From Planctomycetota bacterium (GTDB taxonomy: Bacteria; Planctomycetota; UBA8108; SXIK01): 64,000 nucleotides of DNA. The notes beneath the pieces were generated by a model. It had not been told where the DNA came from and searched no databases. It saw only the letters and a program-made list of their open reading frames with translations. The DNA is taken from positions 5,792,001 to 5,856,000 of the forward strand of contig OZ244999.1 of the NCBI GenBank assembly GCA_965223265.1, written 5' to 3'. The position numbers were made by a program, and so were the translations under genes. This document shows positions 43,964 to 64,000 of the stretch, in pieces; position 1 is the first letter of the stretch; each line of letters starts with the position of its first letter.

Positions 43964-44184
43964 CGAAAACTTCCGCGCAAGATCGTTTTCTGTGAACCTT
44001 TTCGAGCCGTATCGTACTGAAGTCGTGGGAGTCACGCGATGTCCAGCTCTCGCCGGGGACGTCTGTGGGGATGATTCCCGTAAACGACAGGGCGCAGAAT
44101 GTCGGGAATGACCAAAGACAATATAGCGTCGACGCCGTTTGCTCGTGCGATCGAGATGGAGTCAAGACTTCGAGGAACCCCTTG

Positions 44185-45057
44185 ATGGCGAACAACTTGT
44201 TCATCGGTCAATCCCTGGTATGGCAGCGATTCGCCGCTACCCTTCTGGCCGTCGCCATGGTGGGATGCGACACAGTAGGAATCCGTGGCGACGGCGCCAC
44301 CACCACGCTTCAAACACCGAGAGCTCGCCGGGAAAGCTCGGCAGCGGACGAGCGAGGACTTGCTGCTTTCCGGTATGAAGTCGATGCTGCGGCGGCGCGC
44401 GAGGAGTCTGATGCATTGCGGGAACGAGGCGCGTCCGAGCAGCCAGAAGGTTCGCCGGCCCGCAGCAAAGACACCACGACGTCTCGCACCTCGGAAACTG
44501 ATCATCAGGACGCAGCTGAGCGCCGTGTCGTCTATACCGCGGCGTTCGAGATTTTAGTCGCTAACGTCAAGGATGCGATGCAGCAGCATCTCCATGAGAT
44601 CAAGTCCCTTGGTGGTCACTTTCAGTCGCGAAACGCCTCGACGATCGTCAGCCGAGTCCCAGCGGCAAACTTTGAAAAGCTCGTCGAAACAATTCCATCG
44701 CTCGGCCGTGTCCTTTCCGAGTCGGTCGACGCGATGGACGTCACGAAACGCTACTTCGATCTCGAGCTACGCATTCGGACGACCGAGAATGCCTTGGAGC
44801 GGCTCGTGGTTCTTCTCAAGAAGTCGGAGAAGGTCGAGGATCTTCTCAAGATCGAAGAGCAGATCCGACGCCTCACCGAGGAGCTCGAGCGCCTGAAGGC
44901 AGAACTCCGGCAACTGGCCGATCGCGTCGCCTACTCCACCTTGACCGTGACATTTCACTCCAGCGCCCCGCCACCTCAGCCGCCGGGAGTCCGCGTACCC
45001 AACCGTTTCGAATGGATCAATCACGTAGGAATCGAATATGTCATCGATCAATTCTGA
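44185..45057 (+). CDS. DUF4349 domain lipoprotein
   Basis: Lipobox MVGC; RRVVYTA..RVPAANF..DVTKRYFDLELR..LLKIEEQI..LADRVAYSTLTV. Confidence 0.88.
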   Translation: MANNLFIGQSLVWQRFAATLLAVAMVGCDTVGIRGDGATTTLQTPRARRESSAADERGLAAFRYEVDAAAAREESDALRERGASEQPEGSPARSKDTTTSRTSETDHQDAAERRVVYTAAFEILVANVKDAMQQHLHEIKSLGGHFQSRNASTIVSRVPAANFEKLVETIPSLGRVLSESVDAMDVTKRYFDLELRIRTTENALERLVVLLKKSEKVEDLLKIEEQIRRLTEELERLKAELRQLADRVAYSTLTVTFHSSAPPPQPPGVRVPNRFEWINHVGIEYVIDQF

Positions 45058-45568
45058 CGCAACCGTCGCCGAACGCCACGCTCCTCGAAATCGACGGTTC
45101 GCGCTCAGGAAACTCCAACGAGTTTTCGTCGCAGCAGCGACGGGTCTGGCATTGACGAGCTGCGTCGCCATCGATCTCCCAAACGATTTCTTGGAAGTCG
45201 ATCGTGGTCTTGGGGAACTGAAAGCCGTATCGTCAGACGGGGCTCTTTTCTGGACAAGGAAGTTCAAAGATCCCCATCGAGGCAACCTCGAGTTTTGGTC
45301 GAACGCACTGGAGAGCGACTTCGCCGACAATCGAGGCTACGTCATGCTCGAGCAAGGAGAGACCACACTCGCCGGTGGTCGCCAGAGGTATGAATCGGTG
45401 TGGGAGACACGCACAAGGGGCGTTTCATACCGCTACTTGGTGACGCTTGAAGTCATCCAAGGATGGTTCGGGAACAAGATCGTCGTCTCGGAATTCGTCG
45501 CGCCTTCGGCCACGTTTGACGGCTATGTCGACGAAGTGCGTGCAGCCGTGGCATCAATGAAGTCGTGA
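45038..45568 (+). CDS. Hypothetical lipoprotein, coupled to the DUF4349 gene
   Basis: Lipobox LTSC after a hydrophobic stretch; overlaps the upstream stop; start position uncertain. Confidence 0.75.
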   Translation: MSSINSDATVAERHAPRNRRFALRKLQRVFVAAATGLALTSCVAIDLPNDFLEVDRGLGELKAVSSDGALFWTRKFKDPHRGNLEFWSNALESDFADNRGYVMLEQGETTLAGGRQRYESVWETRTRGVSYRYLVTLEVIQGWFGNKIVVSEFVAPSATFDGYVDEVRAAVASMKS

Positions 45569-45592: not shown

Positions 45593-47419
45593 TCAGCGGA
45601 TGCCTTCGGCTTCAAGACGCAGGATCTCGGCGCGCCAAACGTCACGGCGATCGTCGCTAGCCTCGTCTTCAGGCAACAGCGAACGCCGCGTGCAGTTGAC
45701 CAGCGCCTGCAGCGTCTGGTAGCGCCGCGTCTTCTCGATCGCTGGCGGAATGTGGTCGTGCACGATCGCCTCGACGTCCGCCATCTTGAGCAGCCCTCCC
45801 ACCGTCCGCGCCTTCAAGTTCGACCGTAGTGACGCGAACGCCGCCGCCGAGTATCCGGCCGTCAACTCGTCGAGTCGCTTCAAATCCGCCGCACTCGGTG
45901 CTGCGTCGAGCACACCTCTCGTGACCCATTTGAGAAACGCCTGTCGATCCTCTCCCTCGGGATCCAGCACCGGAATCACCAGGTCCCCGACGCGTCCCGG
46001 GCGTCGAATGTCCGGCGAGAGCAGATGGATCCTCGCCGTCATGAGCAGCCAAATGACACGACCGCGGAGGCGCGGGTCGGACATCATCTGCTGGACTTTG
46101 CCAGTCAACCGACGCTCCGTCGAGTGAGCCTCAGCGCCGACACCTCCGAACTGGGTGTCGGCCTCGTCGACGAAGATCACCACTTTGACAAGAGCTTCAA
46201 GAACTCGCCGCAAGCGTTCGAACACAACGTCCGTTTGCCCATACCACTGGCTGCGAATGTTCTTGAGCACGAGGACAGGCATGTCGAGCGCGCTGGCAAC
46301 GGCTTCGAAGATGAACGTCTTGCCACTGCCGATTGGCCCGGAGACGGCGGCGCCAGGCAGCGCATCTGCGCCGGTCGATTGAAACCTCGGGATCAACTCA
46401 TCGTTGAGAAAACCTTTGAGCTTTCTGAAGCCGATCACATCTTCCAAGGTGTGCTCAGGTTTTTTGAATTCAACGACGTCCTCGCCAAGCTGCGACTCGA
46501 TGAACTCACCGACTTTCTGGATCACCTCCGTAGGAGTCAGCGTTTCGTTGGCGTAGGCACTGCCGACCAAAAGCTGGCGCAGCGCGTGGATCGACAGCCC
46601 AGCGGTGTACATCGCCAGCACATCTTCGCTCGCCCACAGCTTCGGCGGCGGTGATTCGCCACGACTCGCGAACCAATTGACGAAATGGCGCCGCGTCTCG
46701 AGATCTGGCGGCGGCACGTCGACCGCGAGGACCTGCGGCAACGCCGCGACGCGTCGATGAATCATGCCGCGCGACTCGGCGACGAGAACGACGGAGTCGC
46801 TGCCTCGCATGAACGCCGGGTCGGAGAACCAGTCCTGCACAATGCCGACACGCCGCCGATCTGCTGCGGAGAGCCGTGAGACGTCTTCTCCGCTTTGCGG
46901 CAGGAGAAAATCCGCCGCCTCGACAACGATCATGAGATCGTCGGTTATGTAACTCTTTCCCTTCGGGCTCCTCGAGCGCGAACAGATCGTGAGTTGTCGC
47001 AAAAACTCGAGTGCTACGGTCGGCTGGCCGATGGCATCGCGCATGCGGCCTTCAAAGTCAGACTCGAACGCCTCCCGCTGCTGCGCCAGTCGTCGATCGG
47101 CAATCGCCTCGAACGCGGCAAGGTCGGGTTCGACGCCGAGCCGCCACGCAGTCCACGCACTCCGGAGACTCTCCCGCTGATCGGTGGGCACGACACGGAT
47201 CGGGCCATTCAGCTCGTAGACGAGCAGCGTCATACCGGGCACGCTGCATTTGTCGCAAAGAAACGGAATCAGCGGCTCGTAGCTGCCCTCCGCACGGTTC
47301 TGCCGCGTGAAGAAAAGGTCGTACACGTTTCCGGTCAAAAGAATACTGCGCGACTGACCGGCGTTGATGATCCGCGCGAGATGGCCGTAGAAGTCGTACG
47401 TCGGCTCGGAAGGGTTCAC
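45593..47419 (-). CDS. AAA+ ATPase: degenerate N-terminal AAA-like module plus active classical-clade AAA module
   Basis: Walker A GPIGSGKT; pore loop SQWYGQT; Walker B IFVDEAD; SRH DIRRPGR; N-terminal LLTGNVYD and IVVEAAD; GTGA overlap with the ABC ATPase gene. Confidence 0.92.
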   Translation of the reverse strand: MNPSEPTYDFYGHLARIINAGQSRSILLTGNVYDLFFTRQNRAEGSYEPLIPFLCDKCSVPGMTLLVYELNGPIRVVPTDQRESLRSAWTAWRLGVEPDLAAFEAIADRRLAQQREAFESDFEGRMRDAIGQPTVALEFLRQLTICSRSRSPKGKSYITDDLMIVVEAADFLLPQSGEDVSRLSAADRRRVGIVQDWFSDPAFMRGSDSVVLVAESRGMIHRRVAALPQVLAVDVPPPDLETRRHFVNWFASRGESPPPKLWASEDVLAMYTAGLSIHALRQLLVGSAYANETLTPTEVIQKVGEFIESQLGEDVVEFKKPEHTLEDVIGFRKLKGFLNDELIPRFQSTGADALPGAAVSGPIGSGKTFIFEAVASALDMPVLVLKNIRSQWYGQTDVVFERLRRVLEALVKVVIFVDEADTQFGGVGAEAHSTERRLTGKVQQMMSDPRLRGRVIWLLMTARIHLLSPDIRRPGRVGDLVIPVLDPEGEDRQAFLKWVTRGVLDAAPSAADLKRLDELTAGYSAAAFASLRSNLKARTVGGLLKMADVEAIVHDHIPPAIEKTRRYQTLQALVNCTRRSLLPEDEASDDRRDVWRAEILRLEAEGIR

Positions 47420-48345
47420 TTCGCCAATACTCCATGGCCTTCACCGCGCTCCATCTGATCCCAGAAGCGCAAATTCTCTCGACGGCCCTGCCGCACCTCC
47501 GGGCTGAAGACGTTCGAGAGGATCTCGCCGCGCTGCTGGACAAACGTAGCGAAATCACGCTCTTGATCCGGGTGGTAGACGGGTGCCATAGCATCATAGA
47601 TGATCGTCGCCCCAGGATGGGAAGGCAACGGTTCCTCCTCCCATGCCCAATACTGCGATAGCCCGGCGACTCGGTCAGAAACGTAGATTGCCTCGTTGAG
47701 CTCGTGCGTCACGATGAGAATCGTGTACGGCGGCGTAAGCCCCGCCTTCTTCGCGGCAAGGTTCTCTTGGTAGAGCCCTAGCAGCATCCCTTGAAGCTCT
47801 TCGCGCGTTGCCTCGTCCAGCGCCCCAAAAGGCTCGTCGAGGAGTAGGATCTTCGGTTTCATGATCAGCGCCTGCGCGATCGCCACACGTTGACGCATCC
47901 CGCCAGACATCTCTGCGGGATACTTGTCGAGCGCTTCCCCCAACTTGAGCTCAACCAACTTCTCCGATGCCCGCTCCAGATGTTCTCGTCGCAGCCGACG
48001 CCACGCGCGGCAGCGAAAGAGGCGAAATGGAATGGTCGTTTCGTCCAGCATGAGTCCGAACGCGACGCTCTCGCGAGCCGTCAAGAAAGGAAAGAGTGAA
48101 TAGCGCTGATAGACGATGCCGCGATCTCTTCCAGGTCCTGAGATCGGTTCGCGGTTCATCAGGATCTCTCCCTGATGCGGCGGATGCGTCCCCAAGATCG
48201 CTCGCAGGAGCGTCGACTTGCCGCAACCGCTCGGACCGACGACCGCGACGATTTCGCCACGGATGACTTGCAGATCCACGTCGTAGAGGACCTTGTTACT
48301 TCCGAACCAGTGACTGACGCCTTTACACTCGAGGACGACATCCAT
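47416..48345 (-). CDS. NitT/TauT family ABC transporter ATP-binding protein
   Basis: GPSGCGKST; YSLFPFLT; MSGGMRQR; LLLDEPFGALD; VTHELNEA. Confidence 0.95.
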   Translation of the reverse strand: MDVVLECKGVSHWFGSNKVLYDVDLQVIRGEIVAVVGPSGCGKSTLLRAILGTHPPHQGEILMNREPISGPGRDRGIVYQRYSLFPFLTARESVAFGLMLDETTIPFRLFRCRAWRRLRREHLERASEKLVELKLGEALDKYPAEMSGGMRQRVAIAQALIMKPKILLLDEPFGALDEATREELQGMLLGLYQENLAAKKAGLTPPYTILIVTHELNEAIYVSDRVAGLSQYWAWEEEPLPSHPGATIIYDAMAPVYHPDQERDFATFVQQRGEILSNVFSPEVRQGRRENLRFWDQMERGEGHGVLAK

Positions 48346-48398
48346 AGCGATTCTATTCCGTTGGCGTTACTGAACCCCGAAGCCGACGCGATGCGAAG

Positions 48399-49208
48399 TT
48401 ACGACTGACCATACCAAGGGCACAACTTGGCTCGGAGATGTCGCAGACAAAAGTCCATGAGGAATCCCACTCCACCCAAGACGACCAGATAGACGTAGAC
48501 AACGCTCATGTCGAGAAGTCGATTCTGGAGTCGTAAGTGGTACCCGAAGCCGACTTCGGCGACGAGATACTCGGCGGCGATCAGATAGACCATCGCTGGT
48601 CCTACCTGCAGCCGAACGCCGTCGATCGCACGCGGTAGAATCTGGCGGACGATCACGTTCCAAATCAATTCACCTTGAGAGGCTCCCAGGGTCGACGCTT
48701 TATAGAGGAGCTCCTCCGGCACGTCTTCTTTCGCAGCGTGGTAGATCGATTGAGCCAGTGTCGGCACCATCCCGAAGGCGATCATGGCAACGTACATCTC
48801 GTACCCTGTACCCACCAGCACGAAAAACACGGGAAGCATCGCCGTCGGTGGTATCTTCGCGAGGAACGCGAGCGGCGGATGGAGGAACGCCTCGACGGGA
48901 GCGTAGCAGCCCATGAGGAGCCCGATGACGATCGAGAGGGCGACGCCCGCCGCGAGGCCGGAGAGGAGACGCGAAAACAGAGTCGCCTTGGTGTCCTCCC
49001 AGATCCAAACTTCGCCCGTGCGGTCCGCCGTGAACACCTTCATGACGCCGTCGGTCCAAAGCTGCGACAAGCTCGGAATGCTGCGGTCGTCAGGATTCTC
49101 TGCAAGCTGGCGATACGACAGAAGCGAGTAAATACCAATCAGAAGCGCGATCGATAGAATTCCAAGCGCGACGCGCCAGCGACGAGAGAGCGGCCTGCGA
49201 ATCATCAT
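48399..49208 (-). CDS. NitT/TauT family ABC transporter permease
   Basis: Multiple TM segments; IPPTAMLP; EAA-like loop ASTLGAS; YLIAAE; GFGY. Confidence 0.95.
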   Translation of the reverse strand: MMIRRPLSRRWRVALGILSIALLIGIYSLLSYRQLAENPDDRSIPSLSQLWTDGVMKVFTADRTGEVWIWEDTKATLFSRLLSGLAAGVALSIVIGLLMGCYAPVEAFLHPPLAFLAKIPPTAMLPVFFVLVGTGYEMYVAMIAFGMVPTLAQSIYHAAKEDVPEELLYKASTLGASQGELIWNVIVRQILPRAIDGVRLQVGPAMVYLIAAEYLVAEVGFGYHLRLQNRLLDMSVVYVYLVVLGGVGFLMDFCLRHLRAKLCPWYGQS

Positions 49209-50272
49209 TTGGCGTCCCGCACGGCCTGCACGAAGCTGGGATCGATTCGCAGCTGCGCTTCCGCAGCTTGAGCGGCGCTACCGTAACCAATCGACGGCGC
49301 ACTCTCGATGATTTCGTGCGACTGGCAAAAATCGGTCACGGTCTTCATGGTCGCCTTCAGCTCTTCACCTGTGAAGAGCGCCAGCGCTTCCTCAGGTGTC
49401 TTGTAAAAGGCCGTCTGCTTCACGACCGTTTTCATCTCCTCGAGTCCGAGGCTCGAAAACTTCGCCCCGAGCGCCACAAGCGTTTCGTCTGCGGTCGCGG
49501 GCGCCGCAAGCAGCTTGTTCACCTCGTAGAACGCATCGACGACGGCATGTGCGAACGCCTGACCGTTAGGTTTGTCGAGAGAGGCCTGGGCTATGCAGAC
49601 CATGTCGACAATTTCTCCGGGGATCGTCGAGGAATCAAAGAGGACCTTCGCGTCCGGGCGCATCTTCAGGCTCTGCAAAACAAATGGATTCCACACCATG
49701 ATGGCGTTGTATCCATCCTGTTTCGTCTGCATGGCCTGCGCGGCCGCTCCTGGATCCATGTTGGTGAACTGGTGATCGGCTTCCTTCTCGCCCGCCTTCT
49801 CGAGGTTGCGAACGAAACAGTACTCCGACACGCTCTTGGACAAGCCGTACACTTTGTGACTGCGGAGCTCCTTGACGTCGGAGATGCCCGTGACGACGCA
49901 CGCGTCTGCTCCCACGCTCGTGCTTGTCGGCAAAACCGCGACCGACTTGCGTCCCAGCGCCGGATTGAGGATGTCCATGTTGGTGATGCACACCGCGTCG
50001 CATGCAGAGGTGTTGTACATCGTGATGCACGTGTCGTAGTCAACCTCCTTGAGGACGATGTCGACGTTCCACTTCTTCTCAATCGGTCCGAGCTCACCCT
50101 CTTTCCCATCGACGAGCCCCTTCTCCTCGGCGACACCGAAAACACTCCACGATGGATACTCACTCCACGCCAAGACGAAGCTCGGGTTCGTCTTCTCGGC
50201 GTCCGTACAACCCACTCCACACAGGACGGCCAAAAGACACAAAGAAGCGATGTTCACAAATGCTCGATGCAT
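49205..50272 (-). CDS. NitT/TauT (SsuA/NMT1-like) ABC substrate-binding lipoprotein
   Basis: Lipobox GVGC; TSVGADAC; VWNPF; FDSSTIPGEIVDM; ATGA overlap with the permease gene. Confidence 0.9.
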   Translation of the reverse strand: MHRAFVNIASLCLLAVLCGVGCTDAEKTNPSFVLAWSEYPSWSVFGVAEEKGLVDGKEGELGPIEKKWNVDIVLKEVDYDTCITMYNTSACDAVCITNMDILNPALGRKSVAVLPTSTSVGADACVVTGISDVKELRSHKVYGLSKSVSEYCFVRNLEKAGEKEADHQFTNMDPGAAAQAMQTKQDGYNAIMVWNPFVLQSLKMRPDAKVLFDSSTIPGEIVDMVCIAQASLDKPNGQAFAHAVVDAFYEVNKLLAAPATADETLVALGAKFSSLGLEEMKTVVKQTAFYKTPEEALALFTGEELKATMKTVTDFCQSHEIIESAPSIGYGSAAQAAEAQLRIDPSFVQAVRDAK

Positions 50273-50341
50273 GGCTCCACCTCTCAAGATTTGCTCTCAC
50301 ATACTGACCTGAATAGTCTCACAACGCCTCGTGCGATCAAC

Positions 50342-51169
50342 TCACTCCTCGGGCAGCCGCGGCGACGCGCTCTCACGCGTCTCTTCGGCTGGCGCATCGC
50401 TCTCCGCCGCCAATCCGATCAGCTGATCGAACTCCTCGGTCGCCGAGTGCGTCCGGGCGTACTCCAAAAACTCAGCTTCCTGACGCTTGGTGTCGGTGCC
50501 TGCCATCTCGCGTGAGATTCTGGCTTTCGCCTTCGTCTGCTCACGCAGCTCACGCAGCTCCTGGAGCTCGCGCGAGGTGCGGTCTTCGCTGATGCCTGCA
50601 ATCATATTGCTGATTTTTTCTTCTTCCGTCGCGGTGATGACATCGGCCACCGTCGCCGCAGCTTCTTCCTTGAGCTGGTCGATCTCACGCATGAGCTGCT
50701 GCAGCTGGACCTTATGGCCACCGACGTTCTCACTCAAGACCTTGACGTCTTCTTCGAGCTCTGAGATATGTGCCGTCTTCTCCTCTATGGTCGTACTGAA
50801 ATCGTTGAAGGCGGCGAGACACTTGGCGTAGTCTTCGTTCTTCTTGATCTCGTCCATAGAGATCCCTTTGGCACGGAGCTCGCTAACGACGCTCCGGGCC
50901 TTCGCGGCTGCACCTTCCTTCAGGCTCTCCAGACGGTTGACGTCGTCGGTCAGCTTCTTGATCGTCGCGAGCTTTTTCTCCTCTTGGGCGATCATCGCGG
51001 CGACTGCGTCTTTGTACTGTTTGATGCGCGCAGACTTTTCGCGAATCACGTTATCAAACGTGGCCTGGATCACGTAGGGACTCTTGTTGAGCTCCTTGCG
51101 AGCGCTGTCGATCCTTCCGGTGATCAGGTACCAGAAGGCTCTCATGTAGCGACCAATGGCTCCAAACAC
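50342..51169 (-). CDS. pspA: PspA/IM30 (Vipp1/ESCRT-III superfamily) protein
   Basis: Amphipathic N-helix MFGAIGRYMRAFWYL; conserved Pro (KSPY, like E. coli EDPQ); long coiled-coil hairpin; C-terminal EAEFLEYA..EEFDQL like LDDQFAEL..EQLAQL. Confidence 0.75.
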   Translation of the reverse strand: MFGAIGRYMRAFWYLITGRIDSARKELNKSPYVIQATFDNVIREKSARIKQYKDAVAAMIAQEEKKLATIKKLTDDVNRLESLKEGAAAKARSVVSELRAKGISMDEIKKNEDYAKCLAAFNDFSTTIEEKTAHISELEEDVKVLSENVGGHKVQLQQLMREIDQLKEEAAATVADVITATEEEKISNMIAGISEDRTSRELQELRELREQTKAKARISREMAGTDTKRQEAEFLEYARTHSATEEFDQLIGLAAESDAPAEETRESASPRLPEE

Positions 51170-51287
51170 GTCATTCTCCCTTCTTCATAGCAGTTTGTTT
51201 TCGATTCAATCGAGCTATTCAGCGCAGTTCAGCACGTCGCCGTGCACGCGCGGACGCATCTCACCTCGAGAACGACCAGATCCGGCC

Positions 51288-52034
51288 TCACTCTCGGCGG
51301 GTCATGGCTTCGCCGACCTCCGTCTCCATGCTGCGGATTCGTTCTTCTACGCGTTTCGCGACCTCAAGACTCTCGTCCAGCTCACGTCGAATGCGAGCCA
51401 GATCCTCTGAACCGTCACGATTCACCGCCAACGCCTGCACGCCGTCGACGGTTCGTTCCAACTGCTCGATGCTCTTTTCGACTTCAACAATCAGCTTTTC
51501 CCGATTGCCAAGGATTGTATCGCGCGCCTTCGTCGTCCGCATGTTCTCAGCGCGGCGCCACAAATCGAGACTCCGCCGCAGGGAATCGAGGCACCCCTGA
51601 AATAGACGCTCAACTTTCGTGGCCATTTCAAACGCCACCTTAGATCCGAGACCATCGGCCCAGCCAGTGTCCTTCCGAAAGGCTCCGTACAGCTCGCGAA
51701 GCGCCCGCAAGCTTTCTTCCGTGCGCTCATCTTCATCTTGGCGGAGCTGCCGATCGAGCTCGTCGAGCGCCGCCTCGCGCTCAAACGCGGCTTCATCTTG
51801 GATTTCCTTCAACGCCCGCTTGGAGATGTCGTCGAGACTCAGAATCCAGCGCGTCGCAACAGCGCCAACGCCGCCGAGGAGGCCGCAAATTCCAACAAAT
51901 GCGGTCAAATCCATCGTGCTTCCGAATCCCCACGAGATGATCAACAGGCTCAGTCCAAGTACAACCGGGATGAGAGACCACGGCGACACGAAGAGGCTTT
52001 GAAGAACCTTTCTCCGAAACCTAGACGTATCCAT
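51288..52034 (-). CDS. Two-TM membrane protein with a cytoplasmic helical bundle (XpaC-like PspA partner)
   Basis: Two N-terminal hydrophobic helices followed by charged coiled coils; lies directly upstream of the pspA-like gene. Confidence 0.7.
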   Translation of the reverse strand: MDTSRFRRKVLQSLFVSPWSLIPVVLGLSLLIISWGFGSTMDLTAFVGICGLLGGVGAVATRWILSLDDISKRALKEIQDEAAFEREAALDELDRQLRQDEDERTEESLRALRELYGAFRKDTGWADGLGSKVAFEMATKVERLFQGCLDSLRRSLDLWRRAENMRTTKARDTILGNREKLIVEVEKSIEQLERTVDGVQALAVNRDGSEDLARIRRELDESLEVAKRVEERIRSMETEVGEAMTRRE

Positions 52035-52049
52035 GCAGCGATCCCCGAA

Positions 52050-53828
52050 TCAGTACGGCGGTTGCCCCAGAACAAAAGTCACGGACTGGGCAGCGCCCCC
52101 TGTTTCTTTCGGCTCACTTGCGACGGCATAAACTCTTTCTTCCGGTATTCCCGCGGTGATCATGAAATCGGCTGCAGCTCGCGCGCGATCGAGCGCCAAC
52201 TTGCGATTGGCATCAGGATCGCCGACCTGACGAGTGTGTCCCTTCACCACAACGTAGTATCCGGGCCACGACTTGAGCTTCTTCACGAGATCACTCAGAA
52301 CATGTCGGCTCTGAGGCGTCAACGTGGCGCCGCCACGGCGAAAGACGAGTGGAGCCACGCGAACGACGCCGACATCGACGATCGCCTCGATCTGCGTTGA
52401 GTTCAAACGCGGCAGCGGCACCTCACCCTGAATCGTCTCGCCACGCCCAAGCCCACCCGGGTGGAAGCCGCTTTGATGTAACGCTCGAAGAATTCCGTCG
52501 TGTACGAACAACTCAGCATTGCCACCGGTTGGATCTCGATCGATCGCCTCGGTATTGACCAGCACCTCGGTGAGATTGGAGATGATTTCCCGCAGCGGCT
52601 GGACGCCTTTGGCTTGCGCCGCGGAGATGATTTCCATATGAGCGTAGTTCTCAATCGTATTCTTCCAGCGAATCGTATCGATCAGTCGCTCAGCCTGCTG
52701 CGAATCAAGTGGTTGGCCAAGGCGTCCCGCGTCTTCCGTCACCAGCTGAGCGACGTCTTCACGCGACTGCATAGAAGCAAACCGAGTGCGAAGATACGCT
52801 CTGACAAACCGTGTGACCAAGTCTGCATCGCTGGTGAGGATTCGGTCACCCACGACGAGAGCATCGACGATGAATCCCCTGAACTTCCCGCTATCGGTGA
52901 TGACATGCGTTCCAGGCGTTTCCAAGATCTTCGAGACGAATGGCTCCCACAGAACATACGCGTGCGGCTCGGTACGCGAGGCACGCCGAAACCGCTCGAA
53001 GACGTCCTTCGCCCCGTCCGCTTCGATCCATGCACTACGCGAGAGACTCGACAAATCGAAGTGTGCCATGAGAACGCGCGCCAGAGTCTCGCTGGGCGAA
53101 TTGCGCGTTGCGACGATGCGCACCGCCGCGTCGTTCAGAGCGTCAACATTAGCAATCGCCGATTCATACGCGACCATGGCATCAGCTCCGGTCGTCTCGT
53201 CGACAAGACAGACGATCTTCGCCGGCATGTCGCGCAGCTGAAAGCTCGTTTGGATCAAGCCATCGATCGGAAAGAGAGCCAGATGCACTTCACCGCTCTG
53301 CAGCTTGCGGATGCGTTGCAAGTAGTCAGCGCCGTCGTCTTCAATCTGAAGACGCAACCCTTCCAAAGCGAGTGCTTGACGGAATGCGTCGGATCGAAAT
53401 AGGAAGTAGCCGGAGAACGAGTCGAGGGCGAGCTTCACCGGCTTCAGCGCCGGAAGGTCGGCGATCGTTCTCTCGAGCCGTACCGTTTCGGACTCGATCT
53501 CCTCGGCGCTCGCAGATCCTGGAAGCGGCTTCACCATAACACCGCGAGATTGAAGATCTCGCAGCGCTTCAGAATAGCTCGTCCATTTTGCGAGTCGCCG
53601 TCCCTCGCGTTCGATCACCTGCTCGGCTTCCTCAACGCTCACACCCTCAGGCAACGCCGCGAGGACGAAACCCGACGTTTCGCTCTCACTCTGCAGGCGC
53701 TCGTACGCCCCTGCGAGCTTCCGACTCTCGTACTCCGAGAAGTGCTTGTAGATTGCGACGCCGGCGCTGAGAAGCAAAAGCCAAACCAGGCTGACTGCGA
53801 TGACCCTTCCTGCTTTTGACTGACTCAC
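52050..53828 (-). CDS. Membrane-anchored SsuA/NMT1-like substrate-binding domain fused to an OmpA-like domain
   Basis: N-terminal TM; ALDSFSGY; DETTGADAMV; VLWEPF; FIVDALVV; VKGHT..GDPDANRKLALDRARAAADFM..GIPEERV; TAGTG overlap with the VWA gene. Confidence 0.85.
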   Translation of the reverse strand: MSQSKAGRVIAVSLVWLLLLSAGVAIYKHFSEYESRKLAGAYERLQSESETSGFVLAALPEGVSVEEAEQVIEREGRRLAKWTSYSEALRDLQSRGVMVKPLPGSASAEEIESETVRLERTIADLPALKPVKLALDSFSGYFLFRSDAFRQALALEGLRLQIEDDGADYLQRIRKLQSGEVHLALFPIDGLIQTSFQLRDMPAKIVCLVDETTGADAMVAYESAIANVDALNDAAVRIVATRNSPSETLARVLMAHFDLSSLSRSAWIEADGAKDVFERFRRASRTEPHAYVLWEPFVSKILETPGTHVITDSGKFRGFIVDALVVGDRILTSDADLVTRFVRAYLRTRFASMQSREDVAQLVTEDAGRLGQPLDSQQAERLIDTIRWKNTIENYAHMEIISAAQAKGVQPLREIISNLTEVLVNTEAIDRDPTGGNAELFVHDGILRALHQSGFHPGGLGRGETIQGEVPLPRLNSTQIEAIVDVGVVRVAPLVFRRGGATLTPQSRHVLSDLVKKLKSWPGYYVVVKGHTRQVGDPDANRKLALDRARAAADFMITAGIPEERVYAVASEPKETGGAAQSVTFVLGQPPY

Positions 53829-54862
53829 TACCGACCTCGATACCTCTGTCTTCTTCGCTTGCGACGCACTTTTCTTTGAGCAGCAAAGGCAAACCCCACC
53901 ACCAAAAGCACAATGACGACGACGCGCCCGAATCCGTCCGAGTCACCACTGTTTCCTCCGGCAGGCGCCCCCACTGGGTTAGAGCCTGGAACGTGTGGCG
54001 AAGGAAGGTTGGTTGGACGCGACGTCGGTCCGGAGGTGGATTCGCGAGCTCTGCTGGATGTTGCAGCGCCAGATCCGATCGGTTGATCCGATGTCGCCAG
54101 AGCTCCGAGCGCCGCGATCAGATCACCGGCGGCGGAATCTGGAATCGCGGCAACCACGGCAAAAGCCTCTTCGTCGACCGTGCCATCCCCAACGCTTCCC
54201 ACCTCAGCGAAAACCTCGCTGAGCGCCTTTTTCAAGGCGGACGAATCGTCAGCACGTCGATAGCCATGCACTCGCGTCGCCAGCGAGTGGTCTGTCTTCA
54301 TGTCGACACCAACCACATCGATCGTTAGACCACGCGCCAGGATCTCGGGCAAGAAAGCTTCAACGAGTTGAGGATCCGAAGCCTTGCCATCCGTTACGAT
54401 GAGCAACCGAAACGTGCCGTAACCTCGCTGTTCCTTGCGGCGCGCGAGCAGCATGTCGCTGCCCTTCTTCAGGTAAGCGCCAAGCGGCGTCCCTGCGTTG
54501 GGTTCGATGGGAGCCAAAGCCTGGCGCAGCACGTCGAGGTCGACAGGGCCCAGAGGGTAGACGAGATCGTTCGTGACGCCGTGCCCGCTGAAGACGAGAA
54601 CACCGACGTGCGTCGTCGGCGGCACTTGGCCGAGGACCGCGAGCAGCGATTCTTTCGCGATGCTCATCTTCGAACGCCCGCTGCCGTGCATCGGCTCCTT
54701 CATCGATCCCGATGCATCGAGAACGACGACGATGTTATCGCTAATACTCGTCGCGGCAGGTGGCTCTTGCGCCGCCAACCATGACGAAGCAGGACCTGCC
54801 AGAAGAGCGATCGAGAACGCGTTCAAAAAAAGCGTCCAAAAACATTCCTTCCTCATGGTCAT
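53828..54862 (-). CDS. Exported VWA domain protein with C-terminal TM anchor
   Basis: MIDAS DASGSM; GTPLG; IVTDG; signal peptide; S/P/G-rich linker, TM and basic tail. Confidence 0.92.
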   Translation of the reverse strand: MTMRKECFWTLFLNAFSIALLAGPASSWLAAQEPPAATSISDNIVVVLDASGSMKEPMHGSGRSKMSIAKESLLAVLGQVPPTTHVGVLVFSGHGVTNDLVYPLGPVDLDVLRQALAPIEPNAGTPLGAYLKKGSDMLLARRKEQRGYGTFRLLIVTDGKASDPQLVEAFLPEILARGLTIDVVGVDMKTDHSLATRVHGYRRADDSSALKKALSEVFAEVGSVGDGTVDEEAFAVVAAIPDSAAGDLIAALGALATSDQPIGSGAATSSRARESTSGPTSRPTNLPSPHVPGSNPVGAPAGGNSGDSDGFGRVVVIVLLVVGFAFAAQRKVRRKRRRQRYRGR

Positions 54863-54901
54863 CTCCCTTCAGTCACAGAGTGCGTGAGCGGTGCCATTGG
54901 C

Positions 54902-56698
54902 TTAGAAATCGAATTCGCTCTGAGACACGGACTCTGCCTTGACACGGAGGAGTCGGAACTCGACGCGCATATTCTCCTTTGACTCGCCGAGATCGCGTGG
55001 CCGTGCGATGACCGGCTCAATGATGCCGGCACCAATCGCTTGGAGCTGCTTCTCGTTCAGCCGAAACTGCTTCGACTCAGCGTATCTCACGATCGTTCGC
55101 CGCACTTCCTCAGCACGCCGCTGGGACAGATTCAACGCCGCCTGCATGGTTCGGCTTGGATCGTTTTCGCCGCCGTTGAACGCCCCCGATTGGACGAGCT
55201 CGACGATTCTCGAGGTCTCGTTGAGGTCAAGTGGCCTGCCCTCAACGAAGTAGCGGTAGTTGCCTCGCGTGCCAGTCCTCTTGATGATGCCCTTCTTGAG
55301 TCCAGCCATGACCAAGTCGCGGAGCGTACGCGTGGGATCAGCGTGACCTCGAATGGCGAAAACCGCGTTGCCGTAGAGTGAAGCATTCTCGACGACGCGC
55401 TGGAATTCAGCTTCGTACTGGCGAACGGGAAACTTCGTCTGGTTGGGCTCGAAGCTGATCGTGAAGGAGAGGAGCGTGCCCTCAGTCTCGACGCCTTCGC
55501 CGATTTCAGGCCCGCCTTCTGCCAGTTGCGTTTTTGTCAGCCCGCCCAGCCGAGTCAGTTGGGGGAACTCGAGATCGTGCATGAGGAGATCGATACGATT
55601 CTTCGCATAGCCTTGTGCAACTGCCAATTGCAAGGCTTCCCGCTGCTTCGTTTCGAAGCCGCTCAAGAATCCTGCCTCTTCGAAGAACAGCCGGTTGCCA
55701 CTCAAGAAGACGAACTCGCAATCCGAGATCAACCCGTCCGCCTCGGCGGCATTTGGGATGACGTCCGAACCGTAGATCTTTTGGGTCAACTCGAGAACGG
55801 CCGAATACTCACGCGACGACCCACTACTCTGGTATCCCCTTTTCATTTCTGCGACGTCTTCACACCCTTTCAGGTAGCCCGCAGCGAACTTCTCGACGAG
55901 GCCGCGTTGGGAGTCGTAGAAGTCCTTACGACAGGCGTAGACGTCCGCGATCGATCGGTTCATGTTGAGCGTCGACACCGCGACGTGGGCTCCCTTGACG
56001 GTGCCCTCGGCTCCGGTTCCGGCGGCGTCGAGACCGCCGGTGAGCCCAATCATGTCCGGCGAGATCACCATGCAGGCGTCGACACTGGAATCGGCGCGAA
56101 AACGAGACGCTGGCCCGCCGTCACCCGTTAATTCCTTCACCCAGACGACGTCGATATCGCTCCACCCGAGACGAGCACTCTTCAAGATATCGTCGAGCAT
56201 GCCGACGTGCGGGCCGCCTTGCTGGAGCACGACTTTCTTTCCCTTGAGGTCGTCCAGAGTTTCAATCTCAGCGCGCCCCACCATGTGGTCCCCCTGCGAC
56301 CACGTGAGCTGCAAAAAGACCACCGGGCGCGTGCGCGGATCCGAGCCCACGACTTCCGACGCCATGCCGATCATTCGCAGGGTGCCGCGAAGAAACGGCG
56401 TATCCCCCGCCATGTAGCGCTTGACCTGACCGACGAAGTCATCACCTGCGACGAGCTTCAGGTTCAGCCCGAGCTCCTGAAAGATCGAGCCGCGCTTCGT
56501 TGCAAGCCCGCCATTAGCATAGAACGTGGCAACGTCGCCGCCCCACGTGATGTAGGGCACCTCCAGCACTCCCTGCGCCTTCACGTTGCCCACGGGCGCA
56601 CGCCCGACGAGCTGCGCGAAAGACTCCTGCGCGCTCACGGACGTCCCGAAGCTCAACAGCGCCGCGAGCGCTCCGAACAGAAACGTTCTCGACTTCAT
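54902..56698 (-). CDS. Secreted SsuA/NMT1-like substrate-binding domain fused to an OmpA-like domain
   Basis: Signal MKSRTFL..VSAQ; YITWGGD; LTWSQGDHMV; SIADVYACR; ISFEPNQ..IRGHADP..NLSQRRAEEVR..ENMRVEF. Confidence 0.88.
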   Translation of the reverse strand: MKSRTFLFGALAALLSFGTSVSAQESFAQLVGRAPVGNVKAQGVLEVPYITWGGDVATFYANGGLATKRGSIFQELGLNLKLVAGDDFVGQVKRYMAGDTPFLRGTLRMIGMASEVVGSDPRTRPVVFLQLTWSQGDHMVGRAEIETLDDLKGKKVVLQQGGPHVGMLDDILKSARLGWSDIDVVWVKELTGDGGPASRFRADSSVDACMVISPDMIGLTGGLDAAGTGAEGTVKGAHVAVSTLNMNRSIADVYACRKDFYDSQRGLVEKFAAGYLKGCEDVAEMKRGYQSSGSSREYSAVLELTQKIYGSDVIPNAAEADGLISDCEFVFLSGNRLFFEEAGFLSGFETKQREALQLAVAQGYAKNRIDLLMHDLEFPQLTRLGGLTKTQLAEGGPEIGEGVETEGTLLSFTISFEPNQTKFPVRQYEAEFQRVVENASLYGNAVFAIRGHADPTRTLRDLVMAGLKKGIIKRTGTRGNYRYFVEGRPLDLNETSRIVELVQSGAFNGGENDPSRTMQAALNLSQRRAEEVRRTIVRYAESKQFRLNEKQLQAIGAGIIEPVIARPRDLGESKENMRVEFRLLRVKAESVSQSEFDF

Positions 56699-57307
56699 AA
56701 GTTCCCCCTTTCGAATTTTAGCCGCCGTGAGCGCCACACTGCAGAGCCGCCCGCTGCAGGCCGACGATCCAGACGGAGGGCGGCGGTGAGGCGTGACGCG
56801 GTGTCGAAACCGAAGCCTCGTTCGCTGCAAGGTCCCATGCCACGTCGACGGCGCGAGAGTAGCGGCGTTATTATCTCCTTTCGTAGCGCTCAATGTCAAA
56901 ACTTGCACGCAAGAGACGCGAAGGAGCCCTACACCACAGATGCCTCGGAGATCGCGATGGAGACTTGGGCACAAGGCGGCCAGGAAGCGGTCGACTCGAC
57001 CCGACAAGGAGCTTCGTCAATCCCCTCGCGCGCTACTCCCGATATCCGAGCGAACGCGTTCCGCCTCGAGCGGTTTCGCTCATTCGACTCCCTGCCGCGA
57101 GTCGGGCGGATCGATCCGGTTCTCGATGGGTTCTTTGACCGCGACCCATTGCAAGGTCAGAGTCGTCGCCGCTCCGAGAGCCGCGCCTACAGTGCGCCAA
57201 TGTCCCCTAATGAGACGTCGCGATGGCAGCAGCGTTTCAAAAAATCGGCCGAAGTCTCCATGATTCGCGAAAGAGGCGACTGAGCGAATCGGCAACGACC
57301 GGACGCT

Positions 57308-57568
57308 TAGCCTCGAGTTTGGCCATTTCGCGTCGAGCCTGCCAGCGCCAGGAGCGTCGAGGTCAAGGAACGACTCGGGCGCGATCCCGCTCGGGTCGTG
57401 GCGGAGGACGGGCGCAGGCCTCGGCGCTCCTGGCGTTCCCCGAAGGGCCGGACAGGAGTTTTTGAATGGGCACAAGGGTTCTCAGGGAACGAAAAAGTCG
57501 AAAGGGCCTCGGAACCCCCGCGAAACTCGTCCGGCCAGGCCGGCGCGAAATGGCCAAACTCGAGGCTA
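57308..57568. mobile_element. MITE-like element B (261 bp) with perfect 25-bp terminal inverted repeats
   Basis: TAGCCTCGAGTTTGGCCATTTCGCG (57308-57332) and CGCGAAATGGCCAAACTCGAGGCTA (57544-57568); internal stem CGCCAGGAGCGTCGAGGTC / GGCCTCGGCGCTCCTGGCG. Confidence 0.75.
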
Positions 57569-57708
57569 GGCTAGAGGAGGCCAACGCCGCCAACGAGGTC
57601 TTTGAGCTCCGCCCCTTGGCCTCCGGAAGAATCACCGCCGAAGACGACACAAAACGGGCGAGGCGCCACTTTGGCGGGACGCCTCGCCCGTTGTCTCCCT
57701 GCAAAATC

Positions 57709-63636: not shown

Positions 63637-64000
63637 TTCAGCCCCTTTCACTTCGAACGTCCCGTCGACCTCTCGACGAGCATGAAAAGACACCACGCGC
63701 GCCTGCGCCAGGCGCGCACCGATTGCTGACACCGACAGGCAACGCAGCAACACAACCCGGCGTGCGCGGGTGTGAACCTTGCCTCGCGTTCCCTGCAGGC
63801 ACTGCGCTCATACGACCCGAGCCCCCCACTCGGCGTGAGGCCGCCAGAGCCTACGGCACCGTGAAGACCTCCGGCGTGCCCGCGGCGACCCCGACCACGC
63901 AGAAAAGATTCGCAACTGCTCCTTACTGTCACTGCCCGGACGCTCGCTTCGATGTCCGAAGCCTGTCGAGCGTCGTTTCCCAATCCTACGAAGCAAGTCC

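Follow-up and report, generated by a model that had tools for sequence, protein, structure and literature searches.

A nine-gene cassette pairing a divergent PspA-like protein with a classical AAA+ ATPase, periplasmic binding proteins and an ABC importer

PspA is a bacterial relative of ESCRT-III. The locus described here raises the question of why a gene for a PspA-like protein should lie in line with genes for an AAA+ ATPase, an ABC importer, a VWA protein and OmpA-like fusions, and whether all of these belong to a single system. The window analyzed is a 64,000-nucleotide stretch of a Planctomycetota bacterium contig. It holds nine minus-strand ORFs, g1 to g9, that span 45593-56698, each at the coordinates and in the order given by the preliminary description of this DNA:

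g1, 54902-56698 (-), exported SBP (NMT1/SsuA superfamily) with a split OmpA-like domain; PF09084 at 1.4e-5
g2, 53828-54862 (-), VWA/MIDAS protein with a low-complexity linker, C-terminal TM anchor and basic tail; PF00092 at 42.6 bits (cut-off 23.8)
g3, 52050-53828 (-), N-terminal TM anchor, helical spacer, SBP and OmpA domains; PF00691 at 1.1e-12
g4, 51288-52034 (-), 2TM hairpin and cytoplasmic helical bundle of ~185 residues; AF2 model
g5, 50342-51169 (-), divergent PspA/IM30 protein (ESCRT-III superfamily); profile-profile match
g6, 49205-50287 (-), probable lipoprotein SBP of NitT/TauT type (SsuA/TIGR03427-like); TIGR03427 at 3.2e-51
g7, 48399-49208 (-), permease, TauC/SsuC/NrtB-like; PF00528 (BPD_transp_1) at 2.3e-14
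g8, 47416-48345 (-), ABC ATPase extended by ~75 residues at its C terminus; PF00005 (ABC_tran) at 2.4e-32
g9, 45593-47419 (-), tandem classical AAA+ ATPase; PF00004 at 4.8e-14
promoter-like TTGACA-18-GATAAT, 56870..56899 (-), 11/12 matches in a consensus scan, ~170 nt upstream of the g1 ATG

The three overlapping junctions read as claimed, with stop and start sharing 1 nt at g2/g3 (TAGTG) and 4 nt at both g6/g7 (ATGA) and g8/g9 (GTGA). By automated start calls, the g8/g9 gap is zero or negative in 14 of 23 complete loci. The remaining gaps in the cassette measure 15-118 nt, including 118 nt between g4 and g5, 54 nt between g5 and g6, and 53 nt between g7 and g8. The promoter-like site is a lead only, the scan having found 4 such sites in the region against 2.8 expected, and no Rfam family was matched within 56400-57800. 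An RHS-repeat gene adjoins the cassette.

Periplasmic proteins and the ABC importer

The g1 ORF is open further upstream, to TTG 57007, and its start was placed at ATG 56698, which has a AAAGGGGGA box, is followed by a signal peptide and coincides with the site at which homologues begin. The OmpA-like C terminus of g1 is divergent, is interrupted by an insert of ~65 residues and was missed by Pfam, while the family profile of this region matched Omp38 (3td3) in two pieces at an E value of 3.5e-4, with GH-D-P and LS..RA invariant. The OmpA domain of g3 matched OmpA-like domains in the PDB at E values down to 6.7e-8, and its N-terminal TM segment is present in 44 of 45 relatives. By hhalign, the SBP domains of g1, g3 and g6 belong to one superfamily (g1 against g3, 93.2%; g3 against g6, 97.7%, E 1.6e-12).

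Between these two fusions lies g2, whose MIDAS DxSxS motif is invariant in 34/34 relatives and whose C-terminal hydrophobic anchor is found in 32 of them. Because this anchor is combined with a signal-like N terminus, the VWA domain appears to be periplasmic. VWA and AAA+ proteins had been proposed as partners here, but a partnership of g2 with g9 is unlikely since the latter is cytoplasmic.

The importer proteins resemble the NitT/TauT group at some distance. Although TIGR03427 is the best model for g6, the match (174.5 bits) falls below its cut-off of 333.9, and that of g7 to TauC (8e-25) is likewise below cut-off. SsuA (2x26) is the nearest solved SBP to g6, at an E value of 1.2e-4, and the likelier start of this gene is ATG 50272, which has a GGTGGAG box.

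The cytoplasmic proteins g4, g5 and g9

The Pfam PspA_IM30 model does not match g5, so its assignment rests on profile-profile comparison, which bears out the preliminary placement of this protein in the PspA/ESCRT-III superfamily. The g5 family profile aligned with that of canonical planctomycete PspA at 97.2% (hhalign, E 4.5e-11, 219 columns), end to end, with collinearity running from the N-terminal helix through helix 5, whereas helical controls gave nothing (g4 against PspA, 0.4%; g4 against g5, 2%). Features of its own are an insert at the hairpin tip and a family-specific C-terminal tail whose last residues are an invariant LPE. The AF2 model of g5 is a helical hairpin (pLDDT 80) for which Foldseek returned Vipp1 6zvr as the best match (E 2.7e-3). 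Structure comparison gave a Z score of 11.6 with E. coli PspA 4whe but did not discriminate, unrelated coiled coils scoring 11-13. Some sources label g5 relatives "PspA/IM30 family". Across the whole genome, no PspA cleared the Pfam cut-off, and neither PspB nor PspC was matched at E <= 0.01; with g9 a classical AAA protein and not of the PspF type, this supports the preliminary statement that the canonical pspF/B/C partners are absent.

Upstream of g5, g4 was modeled by AF2 with a pLDDT of 87.5 and a pTM of 0.71. No Pfam family was found across 34 members, and profile comparison gave no relation to PspA, Snf7 or PspM. The sole lead on its kinship comes from the ESM Atlas, where it scored 0.88 against a cluster in which 12% carry PF25587 Rv2743c. 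"Divergent Snf7", the call made for the TM protein of related operons by Ravi et al. 2024, was not reproduced for g4 by profile comparison or by Pfam. We propose that g4 is the membrane receptor for g5.

In g9, a degenerate N-terminal AAA half that has no P-loop precedes a Cdc48/VAT-like C-terminal half with Walker A and B motifs, a WYG pore loop and RRPGR arginine fingers; hhalign brings the two halves into register at Walker B, with an E value of 1.6e-4 and a prob of 50%. Among solved structures, g9 comes closest to VAT (5vc7, 1.1e-24) and p97 D2 and not to Vps4. CdvC is among its NCBIfam matches (1.8e-13), far below cut-off, and no MIT domain was found in it. Since Walker A residues G361, G364, G366 and K367, Walker B residues D418-E419, pore-loop residues W392 and G394, and arginines R472, R473 and R476 are invariant in 34 g9 sequences, g9 is likely to be an active translocase.

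Conservation and variants of the cassette

Loci were examined for the best 80 of 195 relatives, so the counts favor close kin. Within this set, 22 of the 47 loci with both flanks are complete, keeping all nine genes with order and strand unchanged, and these complete loci carry the phylum labels Planctomycetota, Verrucomicrobiota, Thermodesulfobacteriota, Acidobacteriota and CSSED10-310. Such recurrence of the same nine genes in other phyla places the arrangement far beyond chance. The preliminary description had listed what would refute its reading, namely a g5 product with no ESCRT-III fold, a gene set not conserved together, or an ordinary nutrient importer with unrelated neighbors; since the set is conserved together, the reading is not refuted on these counts. 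In the same set, g9 lies downstream of g5 in 43/56 loci with enough flank, and g4 is found upstream, on the strand of g5, in 61/74. Among the 47 loci, ten have g4-g5-g9 or g5-g9 and no ABC genes, six encode g5, accompanied by g4 or not, but lack g9 within 10 kb, and four have g1-g6 with no g7-g9 nearby. The minimal variant, g4-g5-g9, is free of both ABC genes and SBPs. Three loci (L026, L035 and L040) encode g4, a lipoprotein SBP_bac_11-VWA fusion with its DxSGS motif intact and a TM-anchored SBP_bac_11, followed by g5 and g9; ABC and OmpA genes are both missing from them. Here VWA is again joined with an SBP, this time of a different family, beside the same core, which argues that the periplasmic parts belong to the system.

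Among 201 sampled Planctomycetota genomes, g5 was found in 9, and full-length g9 (E <= 1e-234) in exactly those 9 and on the same contigs; g4 occurs in 7 of them and in 0 of the 192 others. With g5 so rare in the phylum and the cassette present in other phyla too, the suggested tie to planctomycete membrane invaginations is unlikely. A quick g9 tree placed 21 Planctomycetota rows on one side (99); for Verrucomicrobiota the figures are 14 rows (97). Because it tracks phylum labels, the tree agrees better with old inheritance and subsequent loss than with frequent transfer, and because the minimal forms are a clade inside Planctomycetota, the core can work alone.

Proposed mechanism and relation to known systems

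From the synteny and co-occurrence observed here, together with the homologies and predicted topologies, we consider it somewhat probable that the cassette is one operon in which an AAA+ protein turns over a PspA polymer seated on a 2TM receptor, and that this turnover is coupled to periplasmic sensing or transport. It would be an envelope-spanning maintenance system of two modules. In the cytoplasmic core (g4, g5 and g9), g5 would be expected to use its N-terminal helix to polymerize on the inner membrane, with g4 probably holding the polymer there as its receptor or nucleator. The g9 product would be a classical AAA+ translocase, a hexamer whose first ring is dead, and would likely extract g5 subunits, perhaps via their family-specific C-terminal tail, so that the coat is remodeled or recycled. 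Of the periplasmic add-on (g1, g2, g3, g6, g7 and g8), g1 and g3 would be SBP proteins tethered to peptidoglycan, with g3 held in the inner membrane as well; g2 would be a VWA protein with a MIDAS motif and a membrane anchor, and g6 to g8 an ABC importer of NitT/TauT type that brings its own SBP. This module may serve for input or transport, binding a small ligand at the wall-membrane interface. Some signal or coupling may run between the modules, but the route proposed earlier, from SBP through the ABC unit and 2TM protein to PspA, is pure inference and does not sit well with the minimal variant or with the SBP-VWA variant, which dispense with the ABC unit.

A less probable reading, which we regard as unlikely but worth weighing, centers on transport: a NitT/TauT-type importer takes up a small solute that the wall-tethered SBPs concentrate, and the PspA-like protein, g4 and the AAA+ ATPase help the transporter complex, either as chaperones for its assembly or by protecting the membrane. 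This would explain the complete importer set in g6 to g8, the three SBP domains from one superfamily and the overlap of the g8 stop with the g9 start, here and in the 14 loci counted above; passages of Ravi et al. 2024 (PMC11237479) also tie remodeling genes to solute transport. It accounts poorly for the ten loci in which the core does without ABC genes, for the three that pair it with SBP-VWA proteins in place of any permease or ATPase, and for the grouping of minimal forms as a clade inside Planctomycetota.

More doubtful still is true ESCRT-like sorting, in which ligand-loaded, wall-tethered SBP/VWA proteins mark a patch that the PspA-like polymer and the AAA+ ATPase bud or internalize. 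The system does unite an ESCRT-III-superfamily protein, a classical AAA+ ATPase and periplasmic binding domains, and archaeal ESCRT loci are described with a ProX-type SBP whose substrate is proposed to be sorted into vesicles (Makarova et al. 2024, PMC10936438, in the passage cited). However, no ESCRT-I/II-like or MIT/MIM parts were found in the cassette, and the roles presented as established for PspA/Vipp1 in the cited part of a review (PMC7619361) are repair and stabilization. An anti-phage or conflict system, a patchy accessory cassette reacting to envelope breach by phage, would suit the 9/201 distribution and the adjacent RHS-repeat gene, but we consider it very improbable: PADLOC yielded only generic domain matches (a MotB-like tail, a coiled coil, P-loops), the g9 tree tracks phylum labels, and no nuclease, protease or toxin domain was found in the nine genes. 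That the cassette is no more than a row of small, unrelated operons that happen to be neighbors, with internal promoters in the g4/g5, g5/g6 and g7/g8 gaps, is hardly credible and already contradicted by synteny, order and strand recurring in the 22 complete loci under at least five phylum labels, by the overlapping junctions that connect modules, and by strict g5/g9 co-occurrence.

As the preliminary description had anticipated, parts of the cassette do appear in a survey of PSP systems. From genomics alone, Ravi et al. 2024 (mSystems, PMC11237479) describe, in the passages cited, operons of PspA, TM-"Snf7", inactive-AAA/AAA, ABC ATPase, permease and PBPB-OmpA, exemplified by OGG56892.1 of Candidatus Handelsmanbacteria, and also infer ATP-dependent remodeling linked to transport. 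These operons and the cassette share PspA, a TM-anchored helical protein, an ABC ATPase, a permease, an SBP-OmpA fusion and a two-domain classical AAA+ protein whose N-terminal copy is dead. The order given there (PspA, SBP-OmpA, permease, ABC, TM-Snf7, AAA-AAA) differs from ours, and the cassette, with nine genes, adds a second SBP-OmpA, a free SBP lipoprotein and the VWA/MIDAS protein; the term "VWA" is absent from the available main text and supplement of that paper.

Classical Psp/Lia systems (E. coli pspF-pspABCDE, B. subtilis liaIHGFSR, M. tuberculosis clgR-pspAMN) likewise set a PspA-family effector gene beside a small membrane protein, and by position g4 corresponds to PspB/C, LiaI or PspM. 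Unlike them, the cassette contains no transcription factor; its genome has no PspB/PspC Pfam match at the threshold given above, g5 misses the Pfam PspA model, and its AAA+ protein is a classical Cdc48-like unfoldase rather than the sigma-54 activator PspF. NitT/TauT importers (TauABC, SsuABC, NrtABCD and the urea-carboxylase-associated SBP of TIGR03427) share with it one SBP, one BPD_transp_1 permease and one ATPase and supply its best HMM matches, but every match is below the equivalog cut-off and the cassette has two further SBP paralogues fused to OmpA-like wall anchors. Like archaeal and eukaryotic ESCRT-III with Vps4/CdvC, it tightly links the gene for an ESCRT-III-superfamily polymer to that for a classical-clade AAA+ protein with an aromatic pore loop, although g9 carries a degenerate AAA ring in place of the N-terminal MIT domain and is closest to VAT and p97 rather than to Vps4. 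Bacteria are said to lack ESCRT-III/Vps4-type pairs in the cited parts of two reviews (PMC7619361, PMC10936438); if the proposed turnover mechanism is correct, g5 and g9 would be their bacterial counterpart.

Layout and conservation of the cassette

Nine open reading frames, g1 to g9, form a head-to-tail series on the minus strand from position 45593 to 56698, co-oriented as the preliminary description had stated, and the three overlapping junctions that it listed are also present: TAGTG between g2 and g3, ATGA between g6 and g7, and GTGA between g8 and g9. The remaining intergenic gaps of the operon measure 15 to 118 nt. The best start of g1 is the ATG at 56698, because a purine-rich box accompanies it, a signal peptide begins there, and homologues start at the corresponding site. 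A TTGACA-18-GATAAT site, which is a match to consensus only, lies ~170 nt upstream of this start, and the 5' region (56400-57800) gave no Rfam match at E <= 1. Convergent plus-strand genes, namely an ORF at 45038-45568 and the DUF4349 gene, form the downstream border.

Genes of the cassette and its surroundings (SBP, solute-binding protein domain)
54902-56698, minus strand: g1, predicted SBP and OmpA-like protein
53828-54862, minus strand: g2, VWA protein
52050-53828, minus strand: g3, membrane-anchored SBP and OmpA protein
51288-52034, minus strand: g4, protein with two hydrophobic segments
50342-51169, minus strand: g5, PspA-like protein
49205-50287, minus strand: g6, SBP of an ABC importer
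48399-49208, minus strand: g7, permease
47416-48345, minus strand: g8, ABC ATPase
45593-47419, minus strand: g9, AAA+ ATPase
41816-45568, plus strand: convergent neighbours, a CBM9/DUF5916 protein (715 aa), a DUF4349 protein (330 aa) and a family-less 176-aa ORF
57709-63753, minus strand: RHS-repeat protein (2014 aa), directly upstream of the operon
35977-41382, minus strand: 1801-aa protein with FG-GAP repeats, a pyruvate-phosphate-dikinase-type ATP-binding domain and a dockerin domain

The 176-aa ORF ends 25 nt from the g9 stop, and on the other side ~1 kb of spacer, in which neither a convincing ORF nor an Rfam match was found, separates the RHS-repeat gene from the operon. The domain combination of the 1801-aa protein is odd.

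The g5 family comprises 1295 proteins at E <= 1e-3 (90% clusters). A scan of the genome collection gave 195 g5 relatives, the best 80 loci of which were analyzed; 47 were testable, with g5 flanked by no less than 5.6 kb on its upstream side and 5.8 kb on its downstream side. These were searched by tblastn with the nine window proteins, and matches were accepted at E <= 1e-5 on the same strand and the correct side of g5, with at least 40% coverage and at least 25% identity (45% for g8 and 40% for g7). Conservation of the gene set in other genomes, on which the preliminary description had staked its proposal, was found, with all nine genes in window order at 22 of the 47 loci. The others held g1-g6 only (4 loci), g4-g5-g9 (6), g5-g9 (4), g4-g5 (3), g5 alone (3), or other partial sets (5). 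Among 23 complete loci, automated start calls gave a gap of zero or less for g8/g9 in 14, for g2/g3 in 11, and for g6/g7 in 7.

Loci with the complete set are labelled by their submitters as Planctomycetota, Verrucomicrobiota, Thermodesulfobacteriota, Acidobacteriota, CSSED10-310, or, in the case of one bin, 'Proteobacteria'; these labels may err, since the carriers come from environmental groups known almost entirely as metagenome bins. In a quick g9 tree of 47 rows, one branch (99) has 21 Planctomycetota rows to one side, and a second branch (97) has 14 Verrucomicrobiota rows to one side. Seven g4-g5-g9 loci, four minimal and three with the SBP-VWA genes described below, form a clade inside Planctomycetota. 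The tree and this clade fit an old cassette subject to loss and reduction better than they fit frequent recent transfer.

Six loci (L029, L058, L055, L062, L073, and L077) have 454 to 2990 nt of extra DNA between g6 and g7, which may hold an added gene; five are from Verrucomicrobiota and one (L055) is from Thermodesulfobacteriota. Two further g5-family loci, L039 and L021, are on short contigs in bins labelled Bifidobacteriaceae and Bryobacteraceae, and the former placement is probably a binning error.

The g4-g5-g9 core

Co-occurrence was assessed in 201 evenly sampled Planctomycetota genomes, 129 of them of high quality. The g5 gene is present in 9 of the 201 (7 of the 129); the same nine genomes and no others of the sample carry full-length g9 (E <= 1e-234), on the same contigs. 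Seven of the nine also carry g4, compared with 0 of the 192 others. In the single genome of the same family (G200:C4), g5 and g9 are adjacent and the g4 homologue is ~1.9 Mb away. The g9 profile also gives weaker, incomplete matches (E 1e-65 to 1e-110; G100:C174, G049:C22, G195:C2, G115:C15, and G191:C18) that begin at about positions 117-158, with one at 42, and suggest a paralogous AAA+ family. Three of these five genomes lack g5. A g9 orthologue at G005:C57:10237-12051 has one in-frame TAG, which may reflect gene disruption or faulty assembly.

The g9 product is predicted to be a tandem classical AAA+ protein. It matches PF00004 at 53.4 bits (cut-off 21.2) and no sigma-54 activator family. 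Residues ~309-550 match the VAT and p97 rings (1.1e-24), and only this part matches solved Cdc48/VAT chains. Invariant in 34 g9 sequences are G361, G364, G366, K367, D418, E419, W392, G394, R472, R473, and R476, which we take to be the Walker A and Walker B motifs, the aromatic pore loop, and the arginines of the second region of homology. The N-terminal 300 residues align in register with the protein's own C-terminal ring at the Walker-B position (hhalign E 1.6e-4, probability 50%), and this half has no P-loop. Cdc48/VAT/p97 proteins, in contrast, have two active AAA rings and a double-psi-barrel N domain, and g9 scores 65.2 bits against their model TIGR01243 (cut-off 802.65). Vps4 of the ESCRT-III/Vps4 system differs in having an N-terminal MIT domain, which recognizes MIM motifs of the polymer subunit, whereas the g9 N-terminal half aligns to its own AAA half, and no MIT family is among the g9 Pfam matches.

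The preliminary description had taken g5 for a PspA protein and thus an ESCRT-III relative. The Pfam model misses it, with no PF04012 (PspA_IM30) match at E <= 0.01 and no g5 among the matches of a six-frame genome search at E <= 1, but the superfamily assignment stood up to profile-profile comparison, which is the decisive test. A profile of 32 g5-family members aligned with one of 14 canonical PspA sequences, cut from PF04012 matches in other Planctomycetota, at a probability of 97.2% (E 4.5e-11). The alignment runs collinearly through 219 columns, starting at the N-terminal helix, and spans helices alpha0 to alpha5; negative controls with the helical g4 profile gave 0.4% against PspA and 2% against g5. 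On this evidence, g5 is a putative divergent member of the PspA/IM30 superfamily. One homologue, P0091, has a precomputed PF04012 match, and sequence and profile searches of the PDB with g5 returned weak coiled-coil matches only, with Vipp1 at E 2-5.

The AF2 model of g5 is a hairpin (H31-100/H112-241; pLDDT 80), for which the top Foldseek match is Vipp1 (6zvr, E 2.7e-3). VIA ranks PspA (4whe; Z 11.6, rmsd 3.2, 124 aligned) amid unrelated coiled coils at Z 11-13, and structure search with the model appears unable to tell this hairpin from other coiled coils. The hairpin tip of g5 bears an insert with family-invariant residues. Outside the PspA alignment is a C-terminal extension made up of a conserved EF..LIGLA helix, an acidic linker that varies, and a terminal LPE that is invariant. 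A complex prediction with full-length g9 and this tail (215-275) scored 0.09 against a mark of 0.32, which is neutral on binding. Fused forms of g5 were sought among longer proteins and none was found, which is weak evidence. The genome of the window has no PspA above the Pfam cut-off; a weak PF04012 match, L081, was rejected as a generic coiled-coil ORF without the N-terminal helix.

The g4 product is membrane-anchored, with two hydrophobic segments followed by a confidently modelled helical bundle (AF2 pLDDT 87.5). No Pfam, PDB, or profile match was found for its family, Foldseek gave nothing at E <= 0.001, the VIA wide search (top 50) returned only designed or generic helical bundles at Z <= 11.7, and the one lead from the ESM Atlas, to Rv2743c/PspM, stayed below threshold. 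A profile search of 1.84 billion proteins yielded 995 representatives at E <= 1e-3, the best 150 of which are close full-length relatives only, and thus no bridge to a named family. Homology to Snf7 was not detected by hhalign, VIA, or Pfam comparison. None of 34 family members matched Snf7 at E <= 10, nor did PF03357 match the genome at E <= 10, the latter being a weak search whose cut-off was exceeded in 0 of 14 control genomes.

The predicted periplasmic module and the sister variant

The remaining genes encode a predicted periplasmic module. We assign g1 as a predicted exported SBP of the NMT1/SsuA type whose C-terminal domain is OmpA-like and split. This C-terminal domain has no Pfam match, and its evidence is the family profile, which matches Omp38 (3td3) at E 3.5e-4 in two pieces flanking a ~65-residue insert. 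Its GH-D-P and LS..RA motifs are invariant, as are D56 and R130 of the domain, presumably the DAP-binding site. The g3 product has an N-terminal TM anchor (present in 44 of 45 relatives), a helical spacer, an SBP domain, and a canonical OmpA domain (PF00691, 48.6 bits, cut-off 27.2), so that a peptidoglycan-binding domain of the OmpA_C type is identified by HMM in g3 and by family profile in g1.

The g2 product matches VWA (PF00092) at 42.6 bits (cut-off 23.8), with a MIDAS DxSxS motif (D49, S51, S53) invariant in 34 of 34 sequences and a C-terminal hydrophobic anchor in 32 of 34; it also has a signal-like N terminus, a long low-complexity linker, and a basic tail. The preliminary description had pointed to VWA proteins as partners of AAA+ ATPases. 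The predicted topology of g2 places its VWA domain in the periplasm, however, and speaks against such a direct partnership here.

The SBP, permease, and ATPase of a NitT/TauT-like ABC importer are encoded by g6, g7, and g8, with all matches below equivalog cut-offs (g6 scores 174.5 bits against TIGR03427, cut-off 333.9; TauC and NtrCD scores are likewise below theirs). The SBP domains of g1, g3, and g6 show barely any similarity by BLASTP. Profile alignment by hhalign gave 97.7% for g3-g6, 93.2% for g1-g3, and 30% for g1-g6, and the three are old paralogues within one superfamily.

Three loci (L026:6950-9972, L040:6879-9971, and L035:2913-5930) have a sister variant in which two other genes lie between g4 and g5. 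One encodes a fusion of SBP_bac_11 and VWA that is lipoprotein-like and keeps its DxSGS motif intact, the other an SBP_bac_11 protein with a TM anchor; these loci have neither a permease nor an ABC ATPase nor an OmpA domain. Here an unrelated SBP family is again paired with VWA and a membrane-anchored SBP beside the core, and we take this as the strongest indication that the SBP and VWA proteins have a working role in the system, and that they would contact each other and be able to act without a transporter. The joining of SBP domains to peptidoglycan anchors and, in the sister variant, to VWA makes this half of the system unusual and suggests that they act as fixed envelope sensors rather than shuttles.

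Possible function and relation to known systems

The cassette is a real, strongly conserved system. From homologies, predicted topology, synteny, and co-occurrence we infer a joint reading, to which we give a slightly better than even chance. The g5 product would polymerize on the inner membrane with g4 as its membrane receptor, g9 would extract g5 subunits so that the polymer is remodelled or recycled, and the periplasmic module would sense a small ligand where wall and membrane meet, or import it. We place much less confidence in any given signal path linking the core and the module.

A transport-centred reading draws on the importer genes, and the sister variant, which has no permease or ABC ATPase, bears on its other side; we consider it unlikely. 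A bacterial ESCRT-like machine in the full sense is a quite doubtful proposal. Periplasmic wall-tethered SBP and VWA receptors would pick a ligand-marked inner-membrane patch, g4 would nucleate a PspA-like polymer beneath it, and the tandem AAA+ protein would power constriction and turnover, leading to cargo-coupled budding, scission, or uptake. If true, the functional pairing of a polymer of the ESCRT-III superfamily with its own classical AAA+ disassemblase would be no archaeal invention, and several bacterial phyla would have kept it, patchily, as an old cassette. Cargo-coupled budding as such, for which the polymer homology of g5 and the SBP domains could be cited, is very unlikely. A conflict system, which patchy occurrence might bring to mind, is highly improbable, and a PADLOC run on the cassette returned nothing specific. 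Chance neighbours are scarcely credible given the recurring gene order.

The canonical partners PspB and PspC were absent, as the preliminary description had held: PF06667 and PF04024 had no match in the genome at E <= 0.01, and g9, by its own Pfam matches, is no sigma-54 activator of the PspF kind. PspB, PspC, or PspF partners characterize the classical Psp regulon. According to the relevant passages of a 2024 survey and a 2025 review, bacteria lack Vps4-like ATPases or ESCRT-III/Vps4 pairs (PMC10936438, PMC7619361), and the review describes a Vps4-like ATPase as apparently absent in bacteria and PspA assembly as regulated otherwise (PMC7619361). In the sampled genomes, g5 and a dedicated classical AAA+ protein were found only together and on the same contigs, and this strict pairing makes it testable whether a bacterial ESCRT-III relative can be actively disassembled.

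Full-text literature searching found no experimental work on the cassette, and the search terms gave no mention of it in Popp et al. 2022 (PMC9239133). The suspicion that its parts might appear in PSP surveys proved right, since the outline is already in print as a genomic prediction in Ravi et al. 2024 (PMC11237479), who report bacterial PspA with a double AAA+ protein and a 'membrane-anchored divergent Snf7'. The degenerate N-terminal half and C-terminal ring of g9 agree with their label 'inactive-Classical-AAA + Classical-AAA'. What is new here is the fixed nine-gene form, the strict g5/g9 co-occurrence, the Snf7 homology of g4 left unconfirmed by the comparisons run, the periplasmic VWA member, and the SBP-VWA sister variant. 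As given in Table S3 and Text S2.2 of Ravi et al. (PMC11237479), their example operon has six genes in an order unlike that of the window, and their operon class comprises PspA, inactive-AAA/AAA, ABC ATPase, permease, and SBP-OmpA. All five are present in the window cassette, which differs in having the VWA member g2, a term that does not occur in the main text or supplement of that work as searched.
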